Part shown: positions 7,112 through 50,052 of the stretch, piece after piece
Numbering within the stretch: the first letter of the stretch is position 1
How the letters are laid out: the number at the start of each line of letters is the position of its first letter
DNA from: a virus
Taxonomy: Duplodnaviria > Caudoviricetes
DNA: 50,679 nucleotides
Strand: one strand, 5' to 3'
IMG/VR virus record: IMGVR_UViG_3300032218_003909
Location: 1-50,679 of that record
The notes under the pieces: generated by a model
Database searches by the model: none
Seen by the model: the letters and a program-made list of their open reading frames with translations, nothing else
Told to the model about the DNA's origin: nothing
Translations under genes and position numbers: made by a program

Positions 7112-8297
7112 TGTTTTGCACCTTTCTTGGTTTATTCGTACTGTTTGTAGCATACACTTGGCTGACGTTGAACACAACTCGTTCGGCTCTTTGAAACATG
7201 ATTTGTCTTTGACTGCCGAACGAAACAGCAGCTGCAGTGACCAAGATGGGAATAGAAGCAATGTCCAGCACTGGTTTAACTGCGTGAATATAACGAGTGT
7301 TTTCTGTGCGAGGATATTTATAATCTGTAGTAATGTTCAGCAAGTCTGACGAATAGCGTTGCTTTAGAAAGTCTGCCATATGCCCGTTAAGATCAGGCTC
7401 GTAGAAAACTGCGGGCCATCTTTCACATTGATCGATATAGTTAAGTACTTGTTCAAACTCATGCCATTGGCTAGGTCTGTTGGCATTTAACTTGAGTTCT
7501 CTGTTGCTTATCAAAAAATAAAAAGATGGGCCGTACTCAGCTACAATTGCATTTGATATATCGTCAGAGAGTGTGTAGCCTAAAATTGGTGAATAATCTA
7601 CTAATTTCAAAAGATTTGATTCGTTAAATCCACCTAGATTTTTCTCTACATAATCGTATAGCTGAGTTGGACAATTTTGAATTAATAACTTATTTCCTTC
7701 AAACATTAATCGAATTTGATAATTTTGGTTTTCTACAGCCAATATTTGTTCAAATAACACATGCACTTCGGGGTCGATCTCAAATGGTTCAGAGTCGAAT
7801 ACAAAACCTTTAGCCCACGTATATAACCAATTCAAATTATATTCAGTTAGATCAGCTTTCCATACTCTTGCATCTTTGTCCCAAAAACAGCGGCCGCGAC
7901 TTTCTTTACTGAACTTACGTAAGTCTTCGATTAATGAAGTACGATAAGGAAATTGAATCACCAACATATCATCTTGAATCTTTAAACAACGGCTGTAATC
8001 AATTTCACGAAGAGGCGTACGCCATTTAGGCGTTTTTACTGGTGATACGTCAATTCCCTTGGAAGACAATTGTCTTTCATATTTGAGTATAATTTTGCAG
8101 GCGAGTTCAGCTTGTCGAACAGTAAAAGCTGTGCTTGTTGCAATCTGATAAGCCATGTTTTCTATAACAGAAACATCATATCTGGCTAGACTAATGAGTT
8201 TGTAGTACTGTACGAATCCTGATCTATAGAAACCAGTTGCATCCTTATGGCCTGCAATAACTTCAATATAATCTTCTACAAAGGGAAACTGAATCAT
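7101..8297 (-). CDS. Hypothetical protein (398 aa)
   Basis: Long ORF coupled to the helicase. FPY...L...WD...W motif is HARP-like (weak). Confidence 0.75.
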   Translation of the reverse strand: MIQFPFVEDYIEVIAGHKDATGFYRSGFVQYYKLISLARYDVSVIENMAYQIATSTAFTVRQAELACKIILKYERQLSSKGIDVSPVKTPKWRTPLREIDYSRCLKIQDDMLVIQFPYRTSLIEDLRKFSKESRGRCFWDKDARVWKADLTEYNLNWLYTWAKGFVFDSEPFEIDPEVHVLFEQILAVENQNYQIRLMFEGNKLLIQNCPTQLYDYVEKNLGGFNESNLLKLVDYSPILGYTLSDDISNAIVAEYGPSFYFLISNRELKLNANRPSQWHEFEQVLNYIDQCERWPAVFYEPDLNGHMADFLKQRYSSDLLNITTDYKYPRTENTRYIHAVKPVLDIASIPILVTAAAVSFGSQRQIMFQRAERVVFNVSQVYATNSTNKPRKVQNIAS

Positions 8298-27552: not shown

Positions 27553-28650
27553 ATGATTAACATATTGGTACCAATGGCTGGGTTGGGCAGTAGATTTACT
27601 AAAGTCGGCATCAATGAACCTAAGCCACTTATTAAAGTTTTAGGAAAAACACTAATTGAACATAGTATAAGCAGTTTCAATGTTGAAGGTCGCTTTATCT
27701 TTCTTACAAGAGAATTTGACAACATTGATTACAATACAGAATTAAGTGCGTTACTAACACACCTCAGACCAGAAAGTATTGAAATCCGTATTAAAAATGT
27801 CACTAGCGGAGCCACTGAGACTGCTTTACTAGCAATTGAGCACATCGATAACGATGATCCGTTAGTCATTTACAATTGCGATCAGTTAATTACCTGGAAT
27901 GCAGAAGATTTTGTAAAATGGATTAAGAAAAAAAATCCAGATGGTGCGTTAGTACTTTATAACAGTACAGATCCTAAAAATAGTTTTGCAGATGTTAATT
28001 CAGGGCGTATTACCAAAGTGGTAGAAAAGCGTGCTATCAGCAACCATGCACTGATTGGATTTCATTACTGGAAACGAGGCAGTGATTTTGTCAAGAGTGC
28101 TCAAATGCTTATGGACAATTTCAGAATCAATGGTCAGCCCGAATGTTATGTCAGCGAAACATACAACTACTTAAACGATGCCAAGATTCTGCCATATCAC
28201 GTTGCAGATCATGTATATGTGCCGTTAGGAACTCCAGAGGATGTTTCTCGTTATATTGGTAAAGTCAAGGAGTTTAAGACAGCTAAACCAAAAACACTGT
28301 TCATTGATATAGATGGAACTATACTAAAGCATCAACATACTATAAGTGATGTTTATAAGAATTCACCACAAGTGCTACCTGAGGTTGTTTCCAAGATTAA
28401 CGAATGGGATAGTCAAGGACATAAAATCATATTAGTCACTGCTCGTAAAGAAAGCACACGAGCAATTACTGAACAACACTTGCGTGGATTTGGTATTGCA
28501 TGGGATCAATTAGTGATGGGCGTCGGTGGCGGTGCTAGAGTACTTATTAATGACAAATTAAACAAAAACGATGCAGACAGAGCCATTGGTGTCAATGTTG
28601 TCACTGACAGTGGGTTTGGTACTATAAGTTGGGAGGATTACGATTTATGA
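27553..28650 (+). CDS. Sugar nucleotidyltransferase fused to a HAD phosphatase domain
   Basis: PMAG.GSRF...PKPLI, NCDQ, EK..IS, LGTPED; C-terminal FIDIDGT...TAR...IND. Confidence 0.85.
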   Translation: MINILVPMAGLGSRFTKVGINEPKPLIKVLGKTLIEHSISSFNVEGRFIFLTREFDNIDYNTELSALLTHLRPESIEIRIKNVTSGATETALLAIEHIDNDDPLVIYNCDQLITWNAEDFVKWIKKKNPDGALVLYNSTDPKNSFADVNSGRITKVVEKRAISNHALIGFHYWKRGSDFVKSAQMLMDNFRINGQPECYVSETYNYLNDAKILPYHVADHVYVPLGTPEDVSRYIGKVKEFKTAKPKTLFIDIDGTILKHQHTISDVYKNSPQVLPEVVSKINEWDSQGHKIILVTARKESTRAITEQHLRGFGIAWDQLVMGVGGGARVLINDKLNKNDADRAIGVNVVTDSGFGTISWEDYDL

Positions 28651-35384: not shown

Positions 35385-36284
35385 TTATGCTCCTAGAAAA
35401 TCTCGTATCCATGACAAACGCATCTGTTCGTCCATCGCGGTGTACTGATGAATGTTGTCACGAATCGCATCAATCAGCGGATAATATTCTTCATCTATCT
35501 TCTGCTTGACATTGCAATTCATTAGCTTATCCGTCTTCGGTGCCCGCGCCACAAACTTGCTTACCAGGTAGTACGGAGTTTTGATTTTGGTTGCTAGTCC
35601 ATCTTGCGTATAGATTACAAATCCTTCATGATGTACCATCCTGGTCATCACTTGCACTTCATCCATGGTTGTTTGAAATGATTCAGGCTTATAACAACCT
35701 AACTTTACAGCCAAGTCTTGCCATTGAATCAATTCTGCATATCCGTCAACCACTGAATTCCATGAGTTTTCTCGTTGCCCGAGAAAGTACATACCAGACT
35801 TTTCAGACACGATATGGGGATCCCGGGGATGCACACATTCAAACATCAGGGTATAGCCTTCTGCTGCACGAATATTTTCTTGCCACCCAGACCACGGCTG
35901 GTGCGTCAACATCATTTCTCTTGCCATATCAACATATTCAGAATCAATTGAGCCGGTGGTAGATACCAGGATATCATCCTGATACCAAGTCATGGCTACC
36001 ATAAATCCATTGATTTTTCGATATGCAGTTACTATCTGCTTGCTATCAATTTTAGGTGCACGCAGTTCGATTCCATAGTTATAAATCTTGGTGAACGGAC
36101 GAGATATTACATTAAAATGCTTGTCTACTATAGTACCTCGACACTCTTCAAGAAAATCGTTCCACAAGTTATCAAAAAACACTCGTTTCTTGTACTTGAG
36201 TACAAAAATATCCTCTTTTGCGGGCTTCATGGACACTAATTTGGGGTTGTCCTGCACAAACCGTGCTAACGCCTGCTTATCCAT
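35385..36284 (-). CDS. RNA ligase (T4 Rnl1-like)
   Basis: ECRG, PF.KI.N, motif I KINGF, TLMFE, EGFVI, KIK. Confidence 0.85.
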   Translation of the reverse strand: MDKQALARFVQDNPKLVSMKPAKEDIFVLKYKKRVFFDNLWNDFLEECRGTIVDKHFNVISRPFTKIYNYGIELRAPKIDSKQIVTAYRKINGFMVAMTWYQDDILVSTTGSIDSEYVDMAREMMLTHQPWSGWQENIRAAEGYTLMFECVHPRDPHIVSEKSGMYFLGQRENSWNSVVDGYAELIQWQDLAVKLGCYKPESFQTTMDEVQVMTRMVHHEGFVIYTQDGLATKIKTPYYLVSKFVARAPKTDKLMNCNVKQKIDEEYYPLIDAIRDNIHQYTAMDEQMRLSWIRDFLGA

Positions 36285-36294
36285 GTATATTTCC

Positions 36295-36501
36295 TCAGAG
36301 TTGTGCTTCTGATAAATCCCGTTTGCGATCTGCTTCGATTTCAGCCTGAGCTTCTTTCAGTGTCTTGCCAGTGGTGCCCACATAGTAGACACCGTCTTTT
36401 AGATACGCAAATCGCCACACGCCTTCTCGAAGTCCGTCATAATACGCATTAATATAACCCATCGGAGTTTCATTGTTTGTCACGCAGGCTTTCTCCTTCA
36501 T
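36295..36501 (-). CDS. Hypothetical protein
   Basis: Small ORF in the operon; the true start may be GTG at 36483. Confidence 0.6.
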   Translation of the reverse strand: MKEKACVTNNETPMGYINAYYDGLREGVWRFAYLKDGVYYVGTTGKTLKEAQAEIEADRKRDLSEAQL

Positions 36502-37042
36502 GATGAGATTTAATTGAACCTTTCATAGCATCTGCAATCATATCACGCATCAGCGTAACAACTTTGCCAGTGGCATCTACACCCACATCACGCACACGAT
36601 ATTTTTCAAGTCCACTAGAATTGCCGTGACGATGACCGTGAAAATGTACTGAACCTCGAGCACACTCTTCGTGATCGAGAATAGGATAGTGAAACATCAC
36701 TACCTTGGTGCCTTCAAATCCAATAGTCAAATACTGATGTATCTCAGCAAAGCAAGCGCGATATGCTTCATTCTTCAATGCTTTTCTATCGTGATTGCCT
36801 TCAATCAAAATCTTCTTGCCTTGCAGGCGATTCACTGTTTCAATTAGCTTTTCTAAAGTCATGAAACCTACATCACCGAGGATGTAAACCGTGTCATTTT
36901 CATCAACCTGACTATTCCATTCAGCAATCATACTTTCAGTCATATGCTGTCCGTCGCGATATTGACCACGAGTCTTGGGGCAATACTTGATGATATTGGA
37001 ATGTCCGAGATGTAGATCCGATGCGATCCATGTGCTAGACAT
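36470..37042 (-). CDS. Calcineurin-like metallophosphoesterase
   Basis: SDLH, LGD, GNHD, H.P, HGHRH, DVGVD. Confidence 0.9.
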   Translation of the reverse strand: MSSTWIASDLHLGHSNIIKYCPKTRGQYRDGQHMTESMIAEWNSQVDENDTVYILGDVGFMTLEKLIETVNRLQGKKILIEGNHDRKALKNEAYRACFAEIHQYLTIGFEGTKVVMFHYPILDHEECARGSVHFHGHRHGNSSGLEKYRVRDVGVDATGKVVTLMRDMIADAMKGSIKSHHEGESLRDKQ

Positions 37043-41345: not shown

Positions 41346-41398
41346 AAAAAGCTTCTACAATTACTTATAAGGTTCAAGTCTTGACTAAAATTTAAATG

Positions 41399-41470
41399 CC
41401 CGGCGTGCAGGAGTCGAACCTACATTCTGGGAGTAGAAATCCCATGTCCTATCCGTTGGACGAACGCCAG
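41399..41470 (-). tRNA. tRNA-Arg(TCT)
   Basis: CTGGCGT/ACGCCGG-G; TGGGA-TT-TCT-AC-TCCCA; no CCA. Confidence 0.9.
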
Positions 41471-41475
41471 AATCT

Positions 41476-41649
41476 TTATCGACCGACCTTTTCCAGAGCT
41501 TCCTTACGCATAAGGAAACGTCGAGGACTGTCAAGTTCATGTACAAAATAATATTCAACGCCATCAATGTATTTGGTGTCTTTCTTTACATCATCACAGA
41601 CGACTTGATCGCCAGTGAATCGATTACGAAACTTAGTTGGGTTTAGCAT
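41476..41649 (-). CDS. Small hypothetical protein (57 aa)
   Basis: MLNPTKFRNRFTGDQVVCDDVKKDTKYIDGVEYYFVHELDSPRRFLMRKEALEKVGR; AAGGAGA RBS. Confidence 0.8.
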   Translation of the reverse strand: MLNPTKFRNRFTGDQVVCDDVKKDTKYIDGVEYYFVHELDSPRRFLMRKEALEKVGR

Positions 41650-41733
41650 TGTTGTTCTCCTTTATTTAAAATGGTGTTTTCTGCTCAGCAATTATCCGAT
41701 TAGTCATAACCAATGTAATCTATGAAACAATAA

Positions 41734-41807
41734 TGGCAGGGTTATCTGGTTACGATCCAGATCCGAGAGTTTCAAAGACTCTAGTGCTACCAGTACACCA
41801 TAACCCT
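41734..41807 (-). tRNA. tRNA-Gln(TTG)
   Basis: AGGGTTA/TAACCCT-G-CCA; CT-TTG-AA; T-loop ATCGTAA. Confidence 0.9.
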
Positions 41808-41834
41808 ATATTCTTATATTGTAACTTTACTAAA

Positions 41835-41911
41835 TGGTCGGAGTAGCCAGATTCGAACTGACGACCCTCTGGTCCCAAACCAGATGCTCTACCAAACTGA
41901 GCTACACTCCG
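41835..41911 (-). tRNA. tRNA-Pro(TGG)
   Basis: Canonical cloverleaf, TT-TGG-GA, CCA. Confidence 0.95.
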
Positions 41912-41917
41912 AATAAA

Positions 41918-41993
41918 TGGTGGGTCGTGAGAGACTTGAACTCTCGACCACAGGATTAAAAGTCCCGTGCTCTACCAACTGAGCTAACGACCC
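41918..41993 (-). tRNA. tRNA-Lys(TTT)
   Basis: Canonical cloverleaf, CT-TTT-AA, CCA. Confidence 0.95.
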
Positions 41994-41998
41994 GTAAT

Positions 41999-42088
41999 TG
42001 GTGGATCCTGAAGGAGTTGAACCTAACTGCCAGCCGCCCTACATGTTTATGGCAACGGTTTTACAGACCGTCGTAGGGAACAGGATCC
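41999..42088 (-). ncRNA. tRNA-like RNA (GTA/Tyr anticodon) lacking a D-arm
   Basis: 8-bp acceptor GGATCCTG/CAGGATCC-A-CCA; anticodon arm GACGGT-CTGTAAA-ACCGTT; CCCTAC/GTAGGG pseudoknot; T-loop TTCAACT. Confidence 0.8.
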
Positions 42089-42111
42089 AATATCTATTTT
42101 TCTCAAAAAAT

Positions 42112-42201
42112 TGGCGGAATGACTGGGACTCGAACCCAGAAGACGAATCACTTCGTCCGACGGTTTAGCAAACCGCTCCAATACCATTATGGGACCATTC
42201 C
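42112..42201 (-). tRNA. tRNA-Ser(GCT)
   Basis: TT-GCT-AA, long variable arm GACGAA-GTGA-TTCGTC, G-CCA. Confidence 0.95.
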
Positions 42202-42206
42202 AATTT

Positions 42207-42282
42207 TGGGGTGTCATATGAGGATTGAACTCATGCTTCTGCAGTCACAACACAGTGTGCAAACCACTACACCAACAACACC
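42207..42282 (-). tRNA. tRNA-His(GTG)
   Basis: G-1:C73, TT-GTG-AC, CCA. Confidence 0.9.
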
Positions 42283-42288
42283 ATCGTT

Positions 42289-42331
42289 TGGCCTGGGAGC
42301 AAGGAATCGAACTCTCAATTCCGTGTTACAG
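42289..42331 (-). pseudogene. tRNA 3'-half fragment
   Basis: GAGAG-TTCGATT-CCTTG-CTCCCAG-G-CCA with no 5' half; abuts the CCA of tRNA-Leu. Confidence 0.7.
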
Positions 42332-42332
42332 C

Positions 42333-42409
42333 TGGTACGAGTGGTGGGATTCGAACCCACACTTTAGGGATTTTAAGTCCCTTATCTCTACCGATTGGAT
42401 TACACTCGC
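42333..42409 (-). tRNA. tRNA-Leu(TAA), short variable loop
   Basis: AGGGA-CT-TAA-AA-TCCCT, A-CCA, 77 nt. Confidence 0.92.
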
Positions 42410-42466
42410 ATTATACATGCTACCCACTGGTCAGGTAGTTATTTTTTTAACAATGATTTTTAAATA

Positions 42467-43162
42467 TCAACACATATTCCATTTTACCAAAAGCGGATCC
42501 TCTAACCCTAGTTCTGCGAAGCACTTGATTCTGAGCAAGCATGGATCACAATGACCACATGGCTGACCTGAGTCTGCAGGATCGTAGCAACTGCTGGTGT
42601 TGCTGTAGTCCATGCCCAGTGCGTTCCCGGTGCGAATAATATCTGTTTTTGTCATGTTCATCAATGGTGTGTGAATCTTTAATCTTTCACCTTCAAATCC
42701 AGCTCTGGTAGCCAGATTAGCCATGTTTTCATATGCTGCAATATATTCTGGGCGACAATCTGGGTATCGTGTCATGCCTTCAGGAGCATTGACACCAATG
42801 AAAATATCATTTGCATTTAATGTTTCTGCCCATGCCACAGCAAAACTCAAAAATACCGTGTTGCGGGCCGGCACATATGTCACTGGAATCACACTGACCA
42901 AATCAGGTGCCAGTTCATTTTTGGGCACTTCAATATCACTGGTCAGTGCAGATCCGCCGAATGCTCTTAAATCAATCTTTTGAATCACATGCTGTTCAAC
43001 ATTTGCTTGCTGAGCTAATGCGCGGGCACAATTTAATTCATGAGCGTGTCGTTGCCCGTAATCAAAACTCAGTGCGTACACTCGAAAATCCTGTGATGCC
43101 AAAGCCAGCATTGTTGCTGAGTCTAGTCCACCACTTAATAAGACTACTGCTGCGTTTTTCAT
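42467..43162 (-). CDS. queC: 7-cyano-7-deazaguanine synthase
   Basis: SGGLDS, YGQRH..E, TYVPARN, YPDCR, SCY, CGHCDPC. Confidence 0.95.
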
Positions 43163-43176
43163 AATTTTCCTTGTAT

Positions 43177-43250
43177 TGGTGGCTCCAACGAGAATCGAAC
43201 TCGTAACTATCAGATATCAGCCGATTATTATACCATTTAACTACAGAGCA
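43177..43250 (-). tRNA. tRNA-Ile(GAT)
   Basis: ATCGG-CT-GAT-AT-CTGAT, TTCGATT, A-CCA; 1:72 mismatch. Confidence 0.85.
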
Positions 43251-43259
43251 ATTATAATA

Positions 43260-43348
43260 GATCTCCTAGTGCATGGTCAAGCGGAAAGTTGACCATGAGA
43301 CTGTAGACGCATTCCTACGCCTTCCGTGTCAGATTCATCTAGGAGATC
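43260..43348 (-). ncRNA. Unknown ~89-nt pseudoknotted RNA
   Basis: 10-bp closing stem, 9-bp hairpin CATGGTCAA/TTGACCATG, 7-bp loop-bulge pairing. Confidence 0.65.
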
Positions 43349-43786: not shown

Positions 43787-43814
43787 ATTATACATGTTTT
43801 TTTGAGTTTGTCAA
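43787..43814 (-). promoter_or_regulatory. Sigma70 promoter of the tRNA operon
   Basis: TTGACA-N16-TATAAT; GATAAATA late-like box just downstream. Confidence 0.8.
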
Positions 43815-43849
43815 TCTTGAGCTTTGCCGTTTTTCTAGATAAATATCTG

Positions 43850-44851
43850 ATGCGATATCATGAAATTTTACCTGAAACCTCGGATATTCTGACTCTTAAC
43901 CCTGGCGAAACTAGGCCTGCTCCAATAGCTGCTCGACCAGAGGACCAAAATAAAGCACTGGATTTAGTAAGTCAAATCACAGACCTCAAGCAAGAACTAA
44001 AAAATCTAGCCAGACTGAGGGATGAGATGTATTACAAAACTGATAAATGGTTACGTGATAATCAATATCGTTATGAATCAGACACTGTAAAAAATTTTCA
44101 AAAAGAAATTGATGATATCTCAGCCAAGCATATAGCAACTTCCGATAAAATAGATTCACTATCTAAAGACTACACTTTTTTAATAAAAGGCTATGATGAT
44201 TCTGATGCTGGTGCACTAAGAGCTTACGAGCATCTTAAAAAACACTGCAGCGATTTCTTGAATAACTCCGCTCAGGCACAAAAACTGCTTTATCGCGGCC
44301 TTCAGAATTATCCTAGTTCATTCAGAGGTTTTTCTTTTATCGGTAGATCGTGGGATAAACGACACACCAAAGATACTCCCCGTCAGACACACGAAAAATT
44401 AAGTGCAGTAATGCGAGAAAATGGTTTTACTGCTACACGAGAAAACAGTATCATGTGCACATCTTCATATCCAACTGCTGAAGAATATGGTGAAGTTTAT
44501 ATGATATTTCCTATAAATGGATTCTCTTTTACTTGGAGTAGAACCTACGCTGACATGTTTACTGATTTATTTGATAAGCTTCCGTACTACCCTGCATACA
44601 GTGGCCACTGGAGTGCATTAATGAATCATTTTGATGATACCTACGGAGGAGCCCAAGGCGATGAACAACAAAAGCGCAGCATTGAGTCTAATTTTATCAA
44701 AAATGAATTGAAATTAAATCGCACTGACTTTCATGCAGCATTGCTGTCAGGGCATGAGATATATATTCACGGTCAATACTATGCGTTACACTTACGTGCT
44801 TATTGGCAATTAAATCAGCTACTCAAATCAAACTTTGGTGTAGGATATTGA
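43850..44851 (+). CDS. ADP-ribosyltransferase-like paralog 1
   Basis: LYRG...SIMCTSS...A..YG...HEIYI; ATG at 43850 after GATAAATA; N-terminal coiled coil. Confidence 0.6.
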   Translation: MRYHEILPETSDILTLNPGETRPAPIAARPEDQNKALDLVSQITDLKQELKNLARLRDEMYYKTDKWLRDNQYRYESDTVKNFQKEIDDISAKHIATSDKIDSLSKDYTFLIKGYDDSDAGALRAYEHLKKHCSDFLNNSAQAQKLLYRGLQNYPSSFRGFSFIGRSWDKRHTKDTPRQTHEKLSAVMRENGFTATRENSIMCTSSYPTAEEYGEVYMIFPINGFSFTWSRTYADMFTDLFDKLPYYPAYSGHWSALMNHFDDTYGGAQGDEQQKRSIESNFIKNELKLNRTDFHAALLSGHEIYIHGQYYALHLRAYWQLNQLLKSNFGVGY

Positions 44852-44855
44852 TTGT

Positions 44856-45761
44856 TTAATTCCGTCCTCTGATCAGATCAATTAAAGGCCGATAATAATC
44901 ATAAGAAAATGCGTAATATTTTCCCTTGATGTATATTTCATGCTCAGATTTCAATGCTTGTTCAAGATTTTTATCATCGAATTGTGCGTATTCTATAAAT
45001 GCTTTTTCAATATTTTCAGTTCCAGGTTGTAGCCTAGAAATAAGCTCTTTAAACGACGCAACAGTTTGGGCTGGCGTCATAGATAAAAGACTAGCCCATA
45101 AATCCTTGTACTTATGACTCCACGTATATTTAAATCCGTCAAAAGGCACTATGATGTATGTGTTTTTAGATACACCTGAGGCATAATAATAAGCCATACC
45201 TAAATCACTGGTACACATGATACTGTTTCCACGAGTCGCAGAAAAGCCGTTTGATTTCAGTGCATTATTTACAAATTTATGTATTTCTGGTACTGTATCT
45301 GTTGGATGACGCTTTGCATGTGCAGTGCCGATAAAAGCAGAACTTCTGTGAGGGTTTAAAAAATTTGAAGATCCACGATATAAACAACCGCCATATGCAC
45401 GAGTAACTGATAAAAATTCACCGCAAGTTTTAGTCAACTCGGTATATATGCGATTTGTGCAAGCATTGGCTAGTTCTTGGAAATCTTGTTGAAGATATCT
45501 TAAACGATTTTCTTTTTCCAAAATTTGTGAGTTAAGTTCTTGAATTTTTGTACCATGATCTGCGACTTGACTGGCATTTTGTGTAACATAATCTAACGTA
45601 GTTCGTGCTTTTGATATGTCTTGAGTGATCGTTTGACATTCTTGTTCAATTTGTTTTGCTTGATTTTGGACACTACGTGGTACACTAGCTATGTCTAAAA
45701 TAAAAGGTACTTTCTCACCTGGTTTTAGTTGATTTTCAGATAAAAATTCTTGAAGACGCAT
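44856..45761 (-). CDS. ADP-ribosyltransferase-like paralog 2
   Basis: LYRG...SIMCTSD...A..Y...EHEIYI; GATAAATA four nt before the ATG. Confidence 0.6.
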   Translation of the reverse strand: MRLQEFLSENQLKPGEKVPFILDIASVPRSVQNQAKQIEQECQTITQDISKARTTLDYVTQNASQVADHGTKIQELNSQILEKENRLRYLQQDFQELANACTNRIYTELTKTCGEFLSVTRAYGGCLYRGSSNFLNPHRSSAFIGTAHAKRHPTDTVPEIHKFVNNALKSNGFSATRGNSIMCTSDLGMAYYYASGVSKNTYIIVPFDGFKYTWSHKYKDLWASLLSMTPAQTVASFKELISRLQPGTENIEKAFIEYAQFDDKNLEQALKSEHEIYIKGKYYAFSYDYYRPLIDLIRGRN

Positions 45762-45829
45762 GCAGTATTTATCAGATCAGTTTTTTTAACCAATAAGCTA
45801 GTTTAATCCAGGCAGATATTGAATGTTAA

Positions 45830-46594
45830 CTAAAGATATTTTGCCAATGTCGTCTGGACTTTAGCCATGTCTGCACAGGTATAAGCCTGATAACTGGCTT
45901 TGAGTTTTTCAGGCATTGGTATTTTCACAATAGGCACACGGAAACCTTGCGCTACTTCCAGGAAACTTTTTGTACTGCCTGTGCCAATATTCCAAATACC
46001 ACTTTCAGGTATATTCAAAAACTTTTTATGTAGATCTATCACAGTGCTGACAGGCACAAAATCTCGATGATAATTCTCACTGCCTTCGAATACTCGTATT
46101 TCTCCCACCCTCTCAGCCTGCAATCTAAACTGTGTAAACGGACTGGCTTGAGTTCCCTTGTGTTCTTCATTTGAGCCATATACGTTAAAATAACGGAACC
46201 CTTGAACAACAATATGTTCAAAACATTTTTTTTGAGCATATCTTTCAAACATATATTTGCTCCAGGCATACGGTGTTCGTGGATCAGGCGCAGTATTTTC
46301 ATTAAAATCTTGACCTAGCCCGTATATACTAGCTGAACTTGAATATTGTAGGTTTACTTTGTGTCTAATACATTCATCTAAAATCCAACAACTGAAATCA
46401 TAGTTTTGGCGCATGATTTTGTTTACATCATGCTCAGTTGTAGAACTGATGGCACCTATGTGAATTACCCAATCTAAGCCTTGAATGTTGGGCACCTTCT
46501 CTCCCCATTCATAAGTGCTGACTTCATGTTCTGATAAAGCAGTCAACATGTGACTACCGATAAAACCTTTATAACCTGTGAGAAGTATTTTCAT
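45830..46594 (-). CDS. hldD: ADP-L-glycero-D-manno-heptose 6-epimerase
   Basis: TG..GFIG, H.GAISSTTE, YSSSAS.YG, YAWSK, RYFNVYG..E.HKG..AS, YQ..TCAD. Confidence 0.9.
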   Translation of the reverse strand: MKILLTGYKGFIGSHMLTALSEHEVSTYEWGEKVPNIQGLDWVIHIGAISSTTEHDVNKIMRQNYDFSCWILDECIRHKVNLQYSSSASIYGLGQDFNENTAPDPRTPYAWSKYMFERYAQKKCFEHIVVQGFRYFNVYGSNEEHKGTQASPFTQFRLQAERVGEIRVFEGSENYHRDFVPVSTVIDLHKKFLNIPESGIWNIGTGSTKSFLEVAQGFRVPIVKIPMPEKLKASYQAYTCADMAKVQTTLAKYL

Positions 46595-46667
46595 AATTTT
46601 AGTGCTATTTGTGCACGGTATTTAACATAAATACCAGATATTATTATAACTTTTTACGGAAACCAGC

Positions 46668-47717
46668 ATGCAAATCAATGAAATAATAAGCCGAGAATTG
46701 TCACGAGCAGCATCTAAACAAAAAATTGAGGTCGGTGGGTTCTTAAACAAACACCTACTCGTCAGAACAATAAAACAAGACTGCAGTGATTTTTTGTCTA
46801 AAGCCAAAGGCACAGCTGGTGTTTTTCGTGGTATTGCAGATTATGCAGGATTCCCAGAGGCATATCAATCTCAATCACGCACTAGAAATGCCAGAGATAC
46901 GTCGCAAGAAATACAAAAAAAATTCGATGAACTGTTGATTTCCCAGGGCTTTTCTGCTGTTCGAGGCAACAGTATATTTGTGTCCGGCAGTTTGCCGATG
47001 GCAATTGGTTACGGAGAACCATATTTTATCATACCTAAAAATGGTTTTACGTTCACTTGGAGTCCTGAGATAAAAGATTTTTACACAGGTGGATTAGCTT
47101 TGAATAACAAAAGTTGGGCAGGATTTGTTAGTAAATGGTCTATTTCGCCTGACCACAACCAATTGATTCACAAGATCAAAAATATTATTGACCCACTAAT
47201 TACTGATGTTAATGCAATATGGTCAGCAACAGTTAATCGAAATTCAGAACCAGTTCTTGGTGTCAATTGGAATCAAGAATTTGGAAAACGATGGGCAATG
47301 GACAGCCAGTGGATCGAATCGATTTCACGGATACTCGACTTTATTCGAGAGTCTTTGAAAAGTCCAGATTTAATCTGGATTTTCAATGATTATGGTGGAA
47401 AACAATTAAGACAAAAACTAGAAAATAGTGTAAATCATTTTGAAGCTATCAAAAACATTTTTGCACCAAGAAAAGACTATCAAGAACTTTTAAATTTATT
47501 GTCAAATCAAGTATCATTTAATACACCGGCTTCTGAAATAAATACACCAGAACAAGCACAACGTATTATACAAAATTTAGAAATGAAAAATAATATCGAT
47601 TTACATTCTGCGATATTATCTGAAAATGAGATACTGATAAATGGTTCGTATTACGCATTCGACTATCATAAGTATCAAGATTTGCATGATAAATTATTTG
47701 CAGTCAAACCAGGGTGA
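46668..47717 (+). CDS. ADP-ribosyltransferase-like paralog 3
   Basis: VFRG...SIFVSGS...A.GYG...ENEILI. Confidence 0.6.
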   Translation: MQINEIISRELSRAASKQKIEVGGFLNKHLLVRTIKQDCSDFLSKAKGTAGVFRGIADYAGFPEAYQSQSRTRNARDTSQEIQKKFDELLISQGFSAVRGNSIFVSGSLPMAIGYGEPYFIIPKNGFTFTWSPEIKDFYTGGLALNNKSWAGFVSKWSISPDHNQLIHKIKNIIDPLITDVNAIWSATVNRNSEPVLGVNWNQEFGKRWAMDSQWIESISRILDFIRESLKSPDLIWIFNDYGGKQLRQKLENSVNHFEAIKNIFAPRKDYQELLNLLSNQVSFNTPASEINTPEQAQRIIQNLEMKNNIDLHSAILSENEILINGSYYAFDYHKYQDLHDKLFAVKPG

Positions 47718-47732
47718 TCAGGAAAATAACAT

Positions 47733-48857
47733 ATGCCAGCTAAAAAAACCAATGTATTGAAGCCAGGTGATAGATCACCAATTAATATTGATATGCTAAA
47801 TATCGATCCTGCTTTATTAAGCAAAGCTGCTGAATTAAAAGCTAGAATAGCTGAAATATATAAAGAATTGAATCGACTTGAAAAAGAAAAAAACAAACAA
47901 GTAAAGCAATCTGAAAAAACTCAGCAAGAAATCAATAAAGCGTCATTTTCTAATTATGCTAAAATAATACAAAAGGACTGTTCAGAGTATATACAAGCAG
48001 TTGCTGCTGCTAAAAAAGTTTTATTCAGAGGTATAGATCCAGGTTGGAATCGTCCTTTGGCAGCATATGTGGGTCGAAGTCATAAGAAAAGAGAAACCAA
48101 AGATACAGGGTCAGAAATACAGACAGGCGTTGATAAAATATTAGCAAGCAAAGGATTTACTGCTCTCAGACACAACAGTATATTCACTTCAAGTGATTTA
48201 AACACAGCGTCGGGCTACGGAATACCATTCATAATATTTCCAAAAAATGGCTTTAGTTTTACGTGGAGTCCTAAGATTGCCGATTTTTATCAAGAAATGG
48301 TACAGGACGAAGAAATTTATGATTGGTCAGAATTTGTTAATATACATGGTGCTAGCACTTTAGACTATACAATTTTAAATATGTTTCCACGTGTAGGCTA
48401 TTATCTTGGAATATTTGAAGTTAGTCTTGAAAAGCATCCAAAACTCAAGAGTTTATACCTTTCTATTAAAAATCTCAATGAAAACATCGACGAGATGCTC
48501 GGGGACATCGACTATGATTATCCTGTCATCAACGGAGCAGATATAAATCGTTATATTTCTCAGGTGATGGAAATTATTCGAGCATTGGAAACGGAACCTA
48601 AAATCCAGGATATTCTAAAAAGTAAACCTGAATTAGCAAAAGATTTTAAAAAAATGAAGAGTGAAGTTGGTGAGTTTACAGCTGAATGGCAGAAAAATAA
48701 AAATTTAAACAGATCTGACATTATATTTCAGAAACTCGGATACACTAACCAAAATCTCGTGGCTGCATTAAAATCAGATCATGAAGTCATGATCAATGGC
48801 GAATATTATGCATTGGAATATAGTATATACAAAAATATACTAAAATACTTTAAATAA
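47733..48857 (+). CDS. ADP-ribosyltransferase-like paralog 4
   Basis: LFRG...SIFTSS...A.GYG...DHEVMI. Confidence 0.6.
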   Translation: MPAKKTNVLKPGDRSPINIDMLNIDPALLSKAAELKARIAEIYKELNRLEKEKNKQVKQSEKTQQEINKASFSNYAKIIQKDCSEYIQAVAAAKKVLFRGIDPGWNRPLAAYVGRSHKKRETKDTGSEIQTGVDKILASKGFTALRHNSIFTSSDLNTASGYGIPFIIFPKNGFSFTWSPKIADFYQEMVQDEEIYDWSEFVNIHGASTLDYTILNMFPRVGYYLGIFEVSLEKHPKLKSLYLSIKNLNENIDEMLGDIDYDYPVINGADINRYISQVMEIIRALETEPKIQDILKSKPELAKDFKKMKSEVGEFTAEWQKNKNLNRSDIIFQKLGYTNQNLVAALKSDHEVMINGEYYALEYSIYKNILKYFK

Positions 48858-48876
48858 AATCTTGGAACAATAACAA

Positions 48877-50052
48877 ATGCCACCGAAAAAAACCAATGTA
48901 TTAAAACCAGGCAGTAAATCACCCTTTGAGGTAGATACATCAAACTTGGATCCAGAATTATTAGCTAGGGCAAACACAATAAAGGCTAAGATAGCTGAAA
49001 TTGAAGCTCAGATAGCCAGTCTTCGAGCAGAAGAAAAAAAATCAAAAACAGCTTCCCAAAAAGCTGAAAAAAAGATTGGTGCTCCGTCAATGGTTCGCTA
49101 TGTTGAATTAATACAAAAAGACTGTTCAGAATATGCACAAGCAGTTATAGCAACTGGCAAAGTATTATATCGTGGCAGCGGCAATACAAGCATGCCAGCG
49201 TATGTTGCTCGCAGTCGTAGCAACCGGTCACCAGATAATACACCGTTATCTATCCAGAAAGGTTTTGACAAGTTATTGTCAAGTCAGGGCTTTACTGCTC
49301 TTAGAAAAAACAGTATATTCACTACGAGTAGACAACTACAGGCTGCACGTTACGGAGAACCATACATAATATTTCCAAAAAACGGCTTTAGTTTTACATG
49401 GAGTCCAGAAGTACCAGATTTTTATCGTGGGTTGATAGAGGAACATGAAATACCCACATGGTCTGAATTTGTAAGCCATTATAGCCAAGATACTTCTTCG
49501 ATTTATGTAGATCTAGAGATTCTAAGTGACACTCTTAATTCTATAATCTATGCTCTTCAAGGGATTAGATTTGAATTTCCTATACACCAGAAACAAACTG
49601 AAAAAATCGAGGATGAGATTTACAATCTACAAGAACTGCTAGAGGAAGACCACGAAATCTCACCATATCCAAGTGTAGCGATTAAACAAGCAAATAATTA
49701 TATTAAACGTTTGACAAAAATTATTCAGGGGATAGAAATTTCTCCTGAAATCAAATCTATTTTTTATAAAGATAAAGATGCTAAAGATTATCTAAACAGT
49801 ATAAAGAACTATCAGAATACATTACAGAAAATAAGCAAAGAATTAAAAATTCCAGAATTAGCTGACACTGCAGTACTTCGCAATCTTGCATATACTAACC
49901 AAAATCTTGAAGCAGCATTAAAATCAGACAACGAAGTCATGATCAATGGCGAGTATTATGCGTTCAAATATGATTTATACTATGACATACTAAAATACCT
50001 CCGACAGGATAATAGAAAAAAACCAATGTCTGAAAAGAAATCTAATAAGTAG
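48877..50052 (+). CDS. ADP-ribosyltransferase-like paralog 5
   Basis: LYRG...SIFTTS...A.RYG...DNEVMI; tandem duplicate of paralog 4. Confidence 0.6.
   Translation: MPPKKTNVLKPGSKSPFEVDTSNLDPELLARANTIKAKIAEIEAQIASLRAEEKKSKTASQKAEKKIGAPSMVRYVELIQKDCSEYAQAVIATGKVLYRGSGNTSMPAYVARSRSNRSPDNTPLSIQKGFDKLLSSQGFTALRKNSIFTTSRQLQAARYGEPYIIFPKNGFSFTWSPEVPDFYRGLIEEHEIPTWSEFVSHYSQDTSSIYVDLEILSDTLNSIIYALQGIRFEFPIHQKQTEKIEDEIYNLQELLEEDHEISPYPSVAIKQANNYIKRLTKIIQGIEISPEIKSIFYKDKDAKDYLNSIKNYQNTLQKISKELKIPELADTAVLRNLAYTNQNLEAALKSDNEVMINGEYYAFKYDLYYDILKYLRQDNRKKPMSEKKSNK

Follow-up and report, generated by a model that had tools for sequence, protein, structure and literature searches.

The tRNA-like structures (TLSs) of plant viruses are the ends of viral genomes, act outside translation, and carry a pseudoknot in the acceptor arm. 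In the accessible part of PMC9976931, TLS-Tyr of plant viruses is charged by TyrRS, and the determinants of bacterial tyrosine identity are given as G1-C72, A73, and the GUA anticodon. The 8/4 allo-tRNAs, 8/4 tRNA-Ser, and tRNA-His combine an 8-bp acceptor with a 4-bp T-stem; in the available portion of the account by Mukai et al. (PMC5389517), some 8/4 tRNAs come from phage tRNA clusters, and the allo-tRNAs are tRNA-Sec-like cloverleaves with a D hairpin and a long variable hairpin. tRNA-Sec (RF01852) has a 6-bp D-stem closed as a hairpin, a 4-base D-loop, a C16-C59 or U16-U59 contact, an 8-bp acceptor in a 13-bp branch, a UCA anticodon, and a long variable arm (PMC7609411, available sections, for the D-stem, D-loop, acceptor, and 16.59 contact). 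D-arm-less tRNAs lose the D-loop and are short, as in the 62-nt mini HisT, which has been modelled as Y-shaped, while mitochondrial tRNA-Ser(AGN) has a lengthened anticodon helix (PMC4469028, in the part available). Escherichia coli translates with an engineered D-arm-less tRNA, showing that a bacterial ribosome, EF-Tu, and a synthetase can accept a tRNA with no D hairpin (PMC11551756, as far as the accessible text goes).

The window, the 50,679-base stretch of phage DNA analysed here, encodes on its minus strand a 90-nt tRNA-Tyr(GUA)-like RNA with a predicted pseudoknot (41999..42088), which scores 94.2 bits against a covariance model that includes the gene itself. A sequence-only reading had traced this RNA from 42088 to 41999, with an 8-bp acceptor, a CUGUAAA loop, A73, and CCA, and the trace holds as written. 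From the 5′ end, with all parts on the minus strand, the gene starts with the 8-nt 5′ strand of the acceptor stem, G1 first (42081..42088), and a 2-nt UU connector assigned from sequence and alignment (42079..42080). There follow CCCUAC (42073..42078), assigned by pairing and covariation as strand 1 of a 6-bp D-like helix, and an anticodon arm with a 6-bp stem, the loop CUGUAAA, and the anticodon GUA at 42064-42062 (42054..42072). A D hairpin is absent between the acceptor 5′ strand and the anticodon arm, as the earlier reading had claimed, and 22 nt separate the 5′ end from the start of the anticodon loop. Instead, the partner of CCCUAC is located 3′ of the anticodon arm. Specifically, GCCA forms the 5′ strand of the variable-arm stem (42050..42053) and is followed by UAAACAU, an A/U-rich pseudoknot linker whose length varies in the alignment and the homolog scan (42043..42049), by GUAGGG, strand 2 of the D-like helix, positioned within the variable-arm loop (42037..42042), by CGGC (42033..42036), and by UGGC, which is the 3′ strand of the variable-arm stem by alignment pairing (42029..42032). 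The T arm, also placed by alignment pairing, has the loop UUCAACU with C59 (42011..42025), and the 3′ strand of the acceptor, defined by sequence and alignment, ends in A73 (42002) and an encoded CCA (41999..42010). Because CCCUAC abuts the anticodon stem directly, it would play the role of the D-stem 3′ strand, while GUAGGG would be the equivalent of tRNA positions 10-15; the D segment, normally between positions 9 and 22, would thus now lie in the variable region.

Standard tools pass over this gene. ARAGORN does not call it in a scan of the window, and no Rfam family matches it at the gathering score, the RF00005 cut-off included; the TLS and YrlA models also give no match. The gene thus matches no family already described in Rfam, a check that the earlier reading had asked for. 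Its best match at a relaxed threshold is tRNA-Sec, at 25.7 bits versus a cut-off of 47. Folded alone, the gene forms the CCCUAC/GUAGGG helix together with the acceptor and the anticodon arm, with a z-score of −1.94 and an equally good fold in 6 of 200 shuffles. With a single-sequence z-score of just −1.94, the case therefore rests on comparative evidence. That ARAGORN and Rfam miss the gene, and that its lone-sequence z-score is so modest, would suit a decaying tRNA-Tyr pseudogene or a chance complementarity; the covariation described below refutes this explanation and leaves it next to no probability.

To collect homologs, we ran a scan of IMG/VR in which the anticodon loop and the two hexamers were fixed; it returned 54 loci, 51 of which are homologs by eye. 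To avoid circularity, we also used a helix-blind pattern that specifies only the anticodon loop, the T-loop, and ACCA, at a spacing exceeding that of normal tRNA-Tyr. The helix-blind scans matched at least 120 viral, at least 121 genome, and at least 120 metagenome loci; at least 81, at least 20, and at least 59 of these loci, respectively, hold an element whose acceptor pairs 22 nt ahead of the loop, and they yield at least 132 distinct homolog sequences. The homologs are 85-95 nt long and lie in phage records. In cellular bins, other tRNAs lie beside the gene in 11 of the 15 loci examined, placing it mostly among tRNA arrays. Unannotated copies are present in two cultured phages, Pseudomonas phage Rembedalsseter (PQ464593.1, 44629-44716) and Rhizobium phage RHph_N3_2 (MN988526.1); the copy in Rembedalsseter, a 45-kb phage, is an isolated gene with an 11/12 sigma-70 site about 20 nt upstream. 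Members score 66-99 bits with the covariance model, versus at most 35 bits for canonical tRNAs in the same loci, with two intermediates at 47 and 38 bits. tRNA finders miss most of the family; ARAGORN calls two members (L146 and L263) as Tyr, and two members (L025 and L032) have a 7/5 branch. Three loci (L008, L014, and L049) carry one sequence with C1-G72, the archaeal/eukaryal-type tyrosine identity pair, and no encoded CCA. The 'tRNA-OTHER' of Lactobacillus phage 3-521 (H34), whose body follows the normal order, reaches 19 bits and was excluded from the family.

The homologs preserve the D-like helix through sequence change. Among the matches listed, all six pairs form in 120 of the 132 helix-blind homologs and five of six in the other 12, with 50 different hexamers used; all six pairs form in 12.7% of controls with strands crossed between sequences and in 6.5% of best-match searches in shuffled regions. 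For a position-by-position analysis, 79 of 103 candidates were aligned with MAFFT (omitted were 7 non-members, 3 sequences whose ends had been mis-parsed, and 14 near-identical members that came from the hexamer-fixed scan). In this alignment, pairing of the D-like helix stands at 97.5%, compared with 40-58% for controls in which the whole structure is slid, and five of its six pairs show double changes; RNAalifold predicts the helix unprompted. On a tree built without the tested columns, which is a weak tree from a short alignment, changes at five D-like helix pairs are coupled in at least 12/12, 13/14, 19/23, 19/21, and 5/7 cases. The Fisher p-values of this analysis count related sequences as independent and carry no weight here. 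The acceptor helix is 99.4% paired with double changes at seven of eight pairs, and the anticodon stem is 97.0% paired. The pairing of CCCUAC with GUAGGG, proposed from the window alone, is thus kept by homologs with compensatory changes. Furthermore, the argument that perfect helices reflect selection, not decay, is borne out by compensatory change in every helix across 132 distinct homologs (among the matches listed), and the same observation speaks against the pseudogene explanation.

The variable-arm stem, which crosses the D-like helix, has three conserved pairs, formed in 77, 77, and 78 of the 79 aligned sequences, with 2, 21 (middle pair), and 6 double changes; the fourth pair is missing in more than half. 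On the tree, 13 of 14 changes at the middle pair are coupled, compared with a mean of 0.36 and a maximum of 0.71 for non-partner controls. Two crossing helices, both under selection, constitute an H-type pseudoknot, and since both the D-like helix and the crossing stem covary, a pseudoknot is predicted. On this comparative evidence we regard the rearranged pairing as very probably correct. Covariation indicates that both helices are selected, while their simultaneous formation is a prediction. It cannot tell alternate from simultaneous helices, and the two helices may instead alternate in a two-state RNA with no simultaneous pseudoknot, a reading to which the loop of just 3-5 nt after the D-like helix would also lend itself, as would the nested minimum-energy fold, which shows the D-like helix only and comes from programs that cannot draw pseudoknots. 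We consider such a switch highly improbable, as the helices occupy different nucleotides and nothing forces exclusion; moreover, an arginine lineage without the variable stem (described below) keeps the strand order, as expected if the stem is a type II arm.

The T-stem had been described as only 3 bp. It has, in fact, four positions, the outer pair being U.U in the window, and the acceptor branch is therefore 8/4 and not 8/3. Among the matches listed, the T-stem has four of four pairs in 61 and three of four in 71 of 132 homologs, its outer pair is G-C, G.U, or A-U in 77 and unpaired in 53, and the eighth acceptor pair is present in all 132.

The claim that the D-arm is replaced by a pseudoknot is right in that the hairpin is gone and a 6-bp crossing pairing takes its place; the D-loop, however, is not lost, as a D-loop-like GG segment now sits on the 3′ side of the anticodon arm. 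GG lies one base after strand 2 of the helix in 113 of 132 homologs and one base later in most others (among the matches listed). In an unbiased mutual-information ranking, helix pairs take the first 15 places, and rank 16 (z 6.8) goes to the base before GG combined with T-loop position 59. Among the matches listed, this combination is U.U in 80 of 113 and C.C in 20 of 113, with C.C in the window; on the tree the coupling is modest, holding for 6 of 9 changes, a fraction of 0.67 that falls within the range of the controls (maximum 0.71). GG conservation, the covariation with T-loop 59, and the A found after GG in members with a UCU anticodon all point to CGGC as a relocated D-loop, comprising a putative C16, G18, G19, and C20. 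Nine members have AG instead of GG, and all nine have G55. The A after GG occurs in 8 of 9 UCU members, versus 10 of 161 scorable GUA members and 0 of 13 UAU members, and in the part of PMC9976931 available, the chief identity element for E. coli ArgRS is A20, a D-loop base. The AG/G55 set is probably one event; the A20 and AG/G55 sets consist of related sequences, and each may be one event.

Compared with the described systems, the RNA shares with bacterial type II tRNA-Tyr (RF00005) the GUA loop, G1-C72, A73, CCA, a short variable stem, a 12-bp acceptor branch, 7-nt anticodon and T loops, and location in a tRNA cluster. It differs from the tRNA-Tyr cloverleaf in having no D hairpin, in the reversed order of its D strands, in a D-loop placed 3′ of the anticodon arm, in the pseudoknot, in an 8/4 instead of a 7/5 branch, and in its score under the RF00005 cut-off. 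The 8-bp acceptor and 4-bp T-stem are those of the 8/4 tRNAs of Mukai et al., while the absence of a D hairpin sets it apart from the allo-tRNAs; in the available supplement to PMC5389517, 12 rows share the anticodon loop; in each of them a segment the size of a D-arm precedes the anticodon arm, and no row belongs to the family. The word 'pseudoknot' is absent from the searchable text and supplement, figures aside. The 6-bp D helix, short D-loop, pyrimidine 16.59 combination, and 8-bp acceptor resemble tRNA-Sec, unlike the variable arm, the 12-bp branch, the anticodon, and the crossing rather than hairpin D helix. As in D-arm-less tRNAs, the anticodon helix is extended by pairing between the connector and bases on the 3′ side of the arm, a lengthening also seen in mitochondrial tRNA-Ser(AGN); unlike those tRNAs, members have 85-95 nt, a GG elbow segment, a full T-loop, and a crossing second stem. 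They accordingly fall outside the mitochondrial D-arm-less class, which is truncated and organellar and has neither a D-loop nor a D/T elbow. TLS-Tyr and TLS-Val, in the part of PMC9976931 available, and YrlA Y RNAs (RF02553) likewise combine a tRNA shape with another strand order.

The family carries the complete bacterial tyrosine identity set of G1-C72, A73, and GUA. G1-C72 is present in 132 of 132 homologs (among the matches listed), though it is absent from the search pattern. A73 was preset in most search patterns; it is nevertheless found, by eye, in the 51 homologs from the hexamer-fixed scan, which left the 3′ end unspecified. With an anticodon-blind pattern close to the subtype of the window, 49 of 49 members have GUA and none is an amber or ochre version. 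The anticodon loop is a canonical 7-nt loop with a purine at position 37. In 28 member loci with at least ten isotypes, which are related to one another and in part overlap, canonical tRNA-Tyr occurs once, while the other 19 isotypes each occur in 19-28; in a biased control of comparable non-member loci, it occurs in 5 of 8. The window also has no canonical tRNA-Tyr by ARAGORN and Rfam in its 50,679 bases, an absence that covers the window alone, the record being estimated at 9% complete, and whole-record searches of both isolate phages likewise found none. Strict mutual exclusion is ruled out by near-complete IMG/VR records, 3 of 7 of which have a canonical tRNA-Tyr elsewhere (6 of 21 records overall, one by eye). 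Among the matches listed, 12 of 20 cellular bins themselves encode a canonical tRNA-Tyr, the others being incomplete bins, and the idea of the pseudoknotted RNA as the sole cellular tRNA-Tyr is unsupported; a 13th bin match is not tRNA-Tyr by eye. With a canonical gene in these phage records and bins, the pseudoknotted RNA is often not the only tyrosine adaptor. A 424-kb phage record (G021:C1:269510-270346) encodes a class Ic synthetase and, besides the pseudoknotted RNA, two canonical genes for tRNA-Tyr.

A phage-borne synthetase partner was considered and rejected: PF00579 (Tyr or Trp) is present in 1 of 25 records, and no class Ic synthetase was found in the other 24, so charging would rest on the host. 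Overall, the RNA is probably a host-charged phage tRNA-Tyr that takes part in translation, its putative L-shape arising from permuted strands. The order would be acceptor, D 3′ strand, anticodon arm, variable stem, D 5′ strand, D-loop, variable stem, and T arm, with the 6-bp pairing between the connector and the relocated strand, supported by covariation, predicted to cross the variable stem and form the pseudoknot. A 12-bp D/anticodon stack and an 8/4 acceptor/T stack would together build the L-shape around a tRNA-Sec-like core, comprising a 6-bp D helix, a short D-loop, a 16.59 contact, and a G18/G19 elbow. The product would be cut out of the cluster transcript, charged by host TyrRS via G1-C72, A73, and the anticodon, and used to decode UAC and UAU.

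The earlier reading had offered either a re-wired functional tRNA-Tyr or a decoy, that is, a tRNA-Tyr mimic soaking up a tRNA-targeting nuclease, a modifying toxin, or TyrRS/TGT, with no ribosomal use. A decoy would fit an RNA that is accessory in all cell bins in which the host gene was found (12 of 20, among the matches listed), that shares 3 of 7 near-complete records with a canonical tRNA-Tyr of the phage, and that in a 45-kb phage is a lone gene behind a strong promoter; the RNA ligase and phosphoesterase genes of the window also hint at tRNA conflict. However, the family retains the synthetase determinants at both ends, CCA, the 12-bp acceptor branch, and the elbow, A20 was gained together with an Arg anticodon, and the pseudoknotted RNA fills the Tyr slot of otherwise complete tRNA sets. 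Consistent with a translating role, retron-Eco7 PtuAB depletes tRNA-Tyr, and the rescue of phage by T5 tRNA-Tyr is abolished by anticodon or stem mutations, from which the authors infer a need for translation (PMC11555353, in the sections available). A re-wired tRNA-Tyr, with its function deduced from these features, is thus better supported, and we consider a decoy unlikely.

A charged RNA with a non-ribosomal or regulatory job (aminoacyl donor, primer, stringent-response or T-box effector), the core of which avoids EF-Tu, would be in keeping with the 8/4 branch and the weak outer T-stem pair; unpaired in 53 of 132 homologs (among the matches listed), that pair could weaken EF-Tu binding. In its accessible part, the study of Mukai et al. 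(PMC5389517) allows regulatory roles for some 8/4 and 9/3 tRNAs. We nevertheless judge this very unlikely, as the anticodon loop is canonical, with 7 nt and purine 37, and no common partner gene stood out in the loci viewed. Moreover, 8/4 tRNAs reportedly inserted amino acids in E. coli in the work of Mukai et al., which speaks against a non-ribosomal role.

As to why a tRNA-Tyr would keep such a rearrangement, our preferred guess is escape from defences that destroy host tRNA-Tyr; a neutral rearrangement preserving shape is roughly equally probable. The anticodon loop is unaltered and hence gives no sign of escape from loop-cutting nucleases, and neither a cleavage site nor D-arm dependence was found in the available parts of the PtuAB papers.

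The same pseudoknotted fold occurs with other anticodons. A scan with varied anticodons identified 9 distinct UCU (Arg) sequences (L089:7830-7913, L617, L622, L624, L625, L629, L630, L634, and L646) and 13 distinct UAU sequences (L614, L615, L616, L619, L621, L626, L632, L636, L648, L649, L652, L654, and L663), while a narrow scan for U35 with non-A at 36 (His, Asn, Asp, Gln, Lys, and Glu types), which needs A73, CCA, and GGYGG, found none. L089, a close relative of the phage of the window, holds both GUA and UCU versions. The first pair of UAU members is mostly G.U or C-G. In related loci, 8 of 10 genes that ARAGORN calls 'Ile(TAT)' are 90-95-nt long-arm tRNAs, which may be allo-type or Ser-identity tRNAs carrying a UAU anticodon.

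There is also a second, shorter 7/5 lineage with Arg anticodons (ACG, UCG, UCU, and CCU), which has neither a D hairpin nor a variable stem and in which the anticodon arm is followed by a D-loop-like segment with GGA at its end. Five members were found before the GGA-segment motif served as a query and more afterwards (L096:1369-1448, L111:1466-1547 and 7590-7670, L061, L234, and part of L349-L357, and further L508, L515, L553, L556, L569, L596, and L603); a loose Arg scan gave mostly chance matches, of which 8 of 122 passed, and ARAGORN does not call the short members where checked. In 13 sequences, one of them (L089) of the long type, pairing in a D-like helix of three pairs is 91.4%, and double changes occur at two of the three, which in this small sample is suggestive of a short Arg lineage with a D-like helix. 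The relocated D segment would enter the variable-arm loop and create a pseudoknot in a type II body, and would create no pseudoknot in a type I body. A hidden phage class of non-cloverleaf tRNAs (GUA, UCU, and UAU, and the Arg lineage with ACG, UCG, UCU, and CCU) with the D 5′ strand and D-loop relocated past the anticodon arm, members of which are charged, decode on host ribosomes, and through the altered wiring evade bacterial defences directed at the ordinary tRNA body, is a tentative proposal that we hold to be possible and somewhat doubtful.

Searches of the open literature gave no description of the fold; subscription papers, bioRxiv supplements, and large candidate-RNA lists may hold it unnamed; the available parts of PMC4758250 and bioRxiv 10.1101/2025.05.10.653283 contain nothing relevant. 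Its novelty is one of architecture, the likely job, tyrosine carrying, being ordinary. The family breaks the cloverleaf yet, by covariation, retains the elbow, and if this is true the tRNA L-shape has a second natural wiring. Because finders assume a D hairpin, phage tRNA catalogues would lack whole isotypes. The fold is also a candidate new scaffold for orthogonal tRNAs, and the cultured Rembedalsseter and RHph_N3_2 copies make the hypothesis directly testable.

In the window, the gene sits between tRNA-Ser(GCU) and tRNA-Lys(UUU) in a minus-strand cluster (41398..43250; ARAGORN and Rfam) of eight ARAGORN-called tRNAs, in the order Ile, Leu, His, Ser, pseudoknotted RNA, Lys, Pro, Gln, and Arg. 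The window has 13 tRNAs in total by ARAGORN, and the same 13 by Rfam at the gathering score. The first tRNA of the cluster is immediately preceded by an 11/12 match to a sigma-70-like promoter (43251..43280, minus strand), a consensus match only, with 7 such sites in the region versus 5.9 expected. A blastn search of the whole cluster against cultured phages returned canonical tRNA matches only. The gene content of the window is phage-type, including a helicase, an RNA ligase, and a QueC-like gene. tRNAs with a GUA anticodon are queuosine substrates, and the QueC-like gene lies inside the cluster (42467-43162, minus strand; phrog_1550, E 7e-59); it may serve DNA modification instead. The genes for RNA ligase (phrog_562) and phosphoesterase (phrog_547) lie near tRNA-Thr/Pro (35385-37042, minus strand), and together with a polynucleotide-kinase-like domain at 27553-28650 they are a possible tRNA repair kit. 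Five similar-looking ORFs of 300-390 aa run from 43802 to 50052, one of which, when checked, matched phrog_11975, of unknown function. Within the cluster, tRNA-Leu(UAA) (42333-42409, minus strand) has a short variable loop and 77 nt, the Leu genes of related loci being mostly 75-82 nt too, and is followed immediately by a 3′-half tRNA remnant comprising a T arm, an acceptor 3′ strand, and CCA (42287-42332, minus strand).
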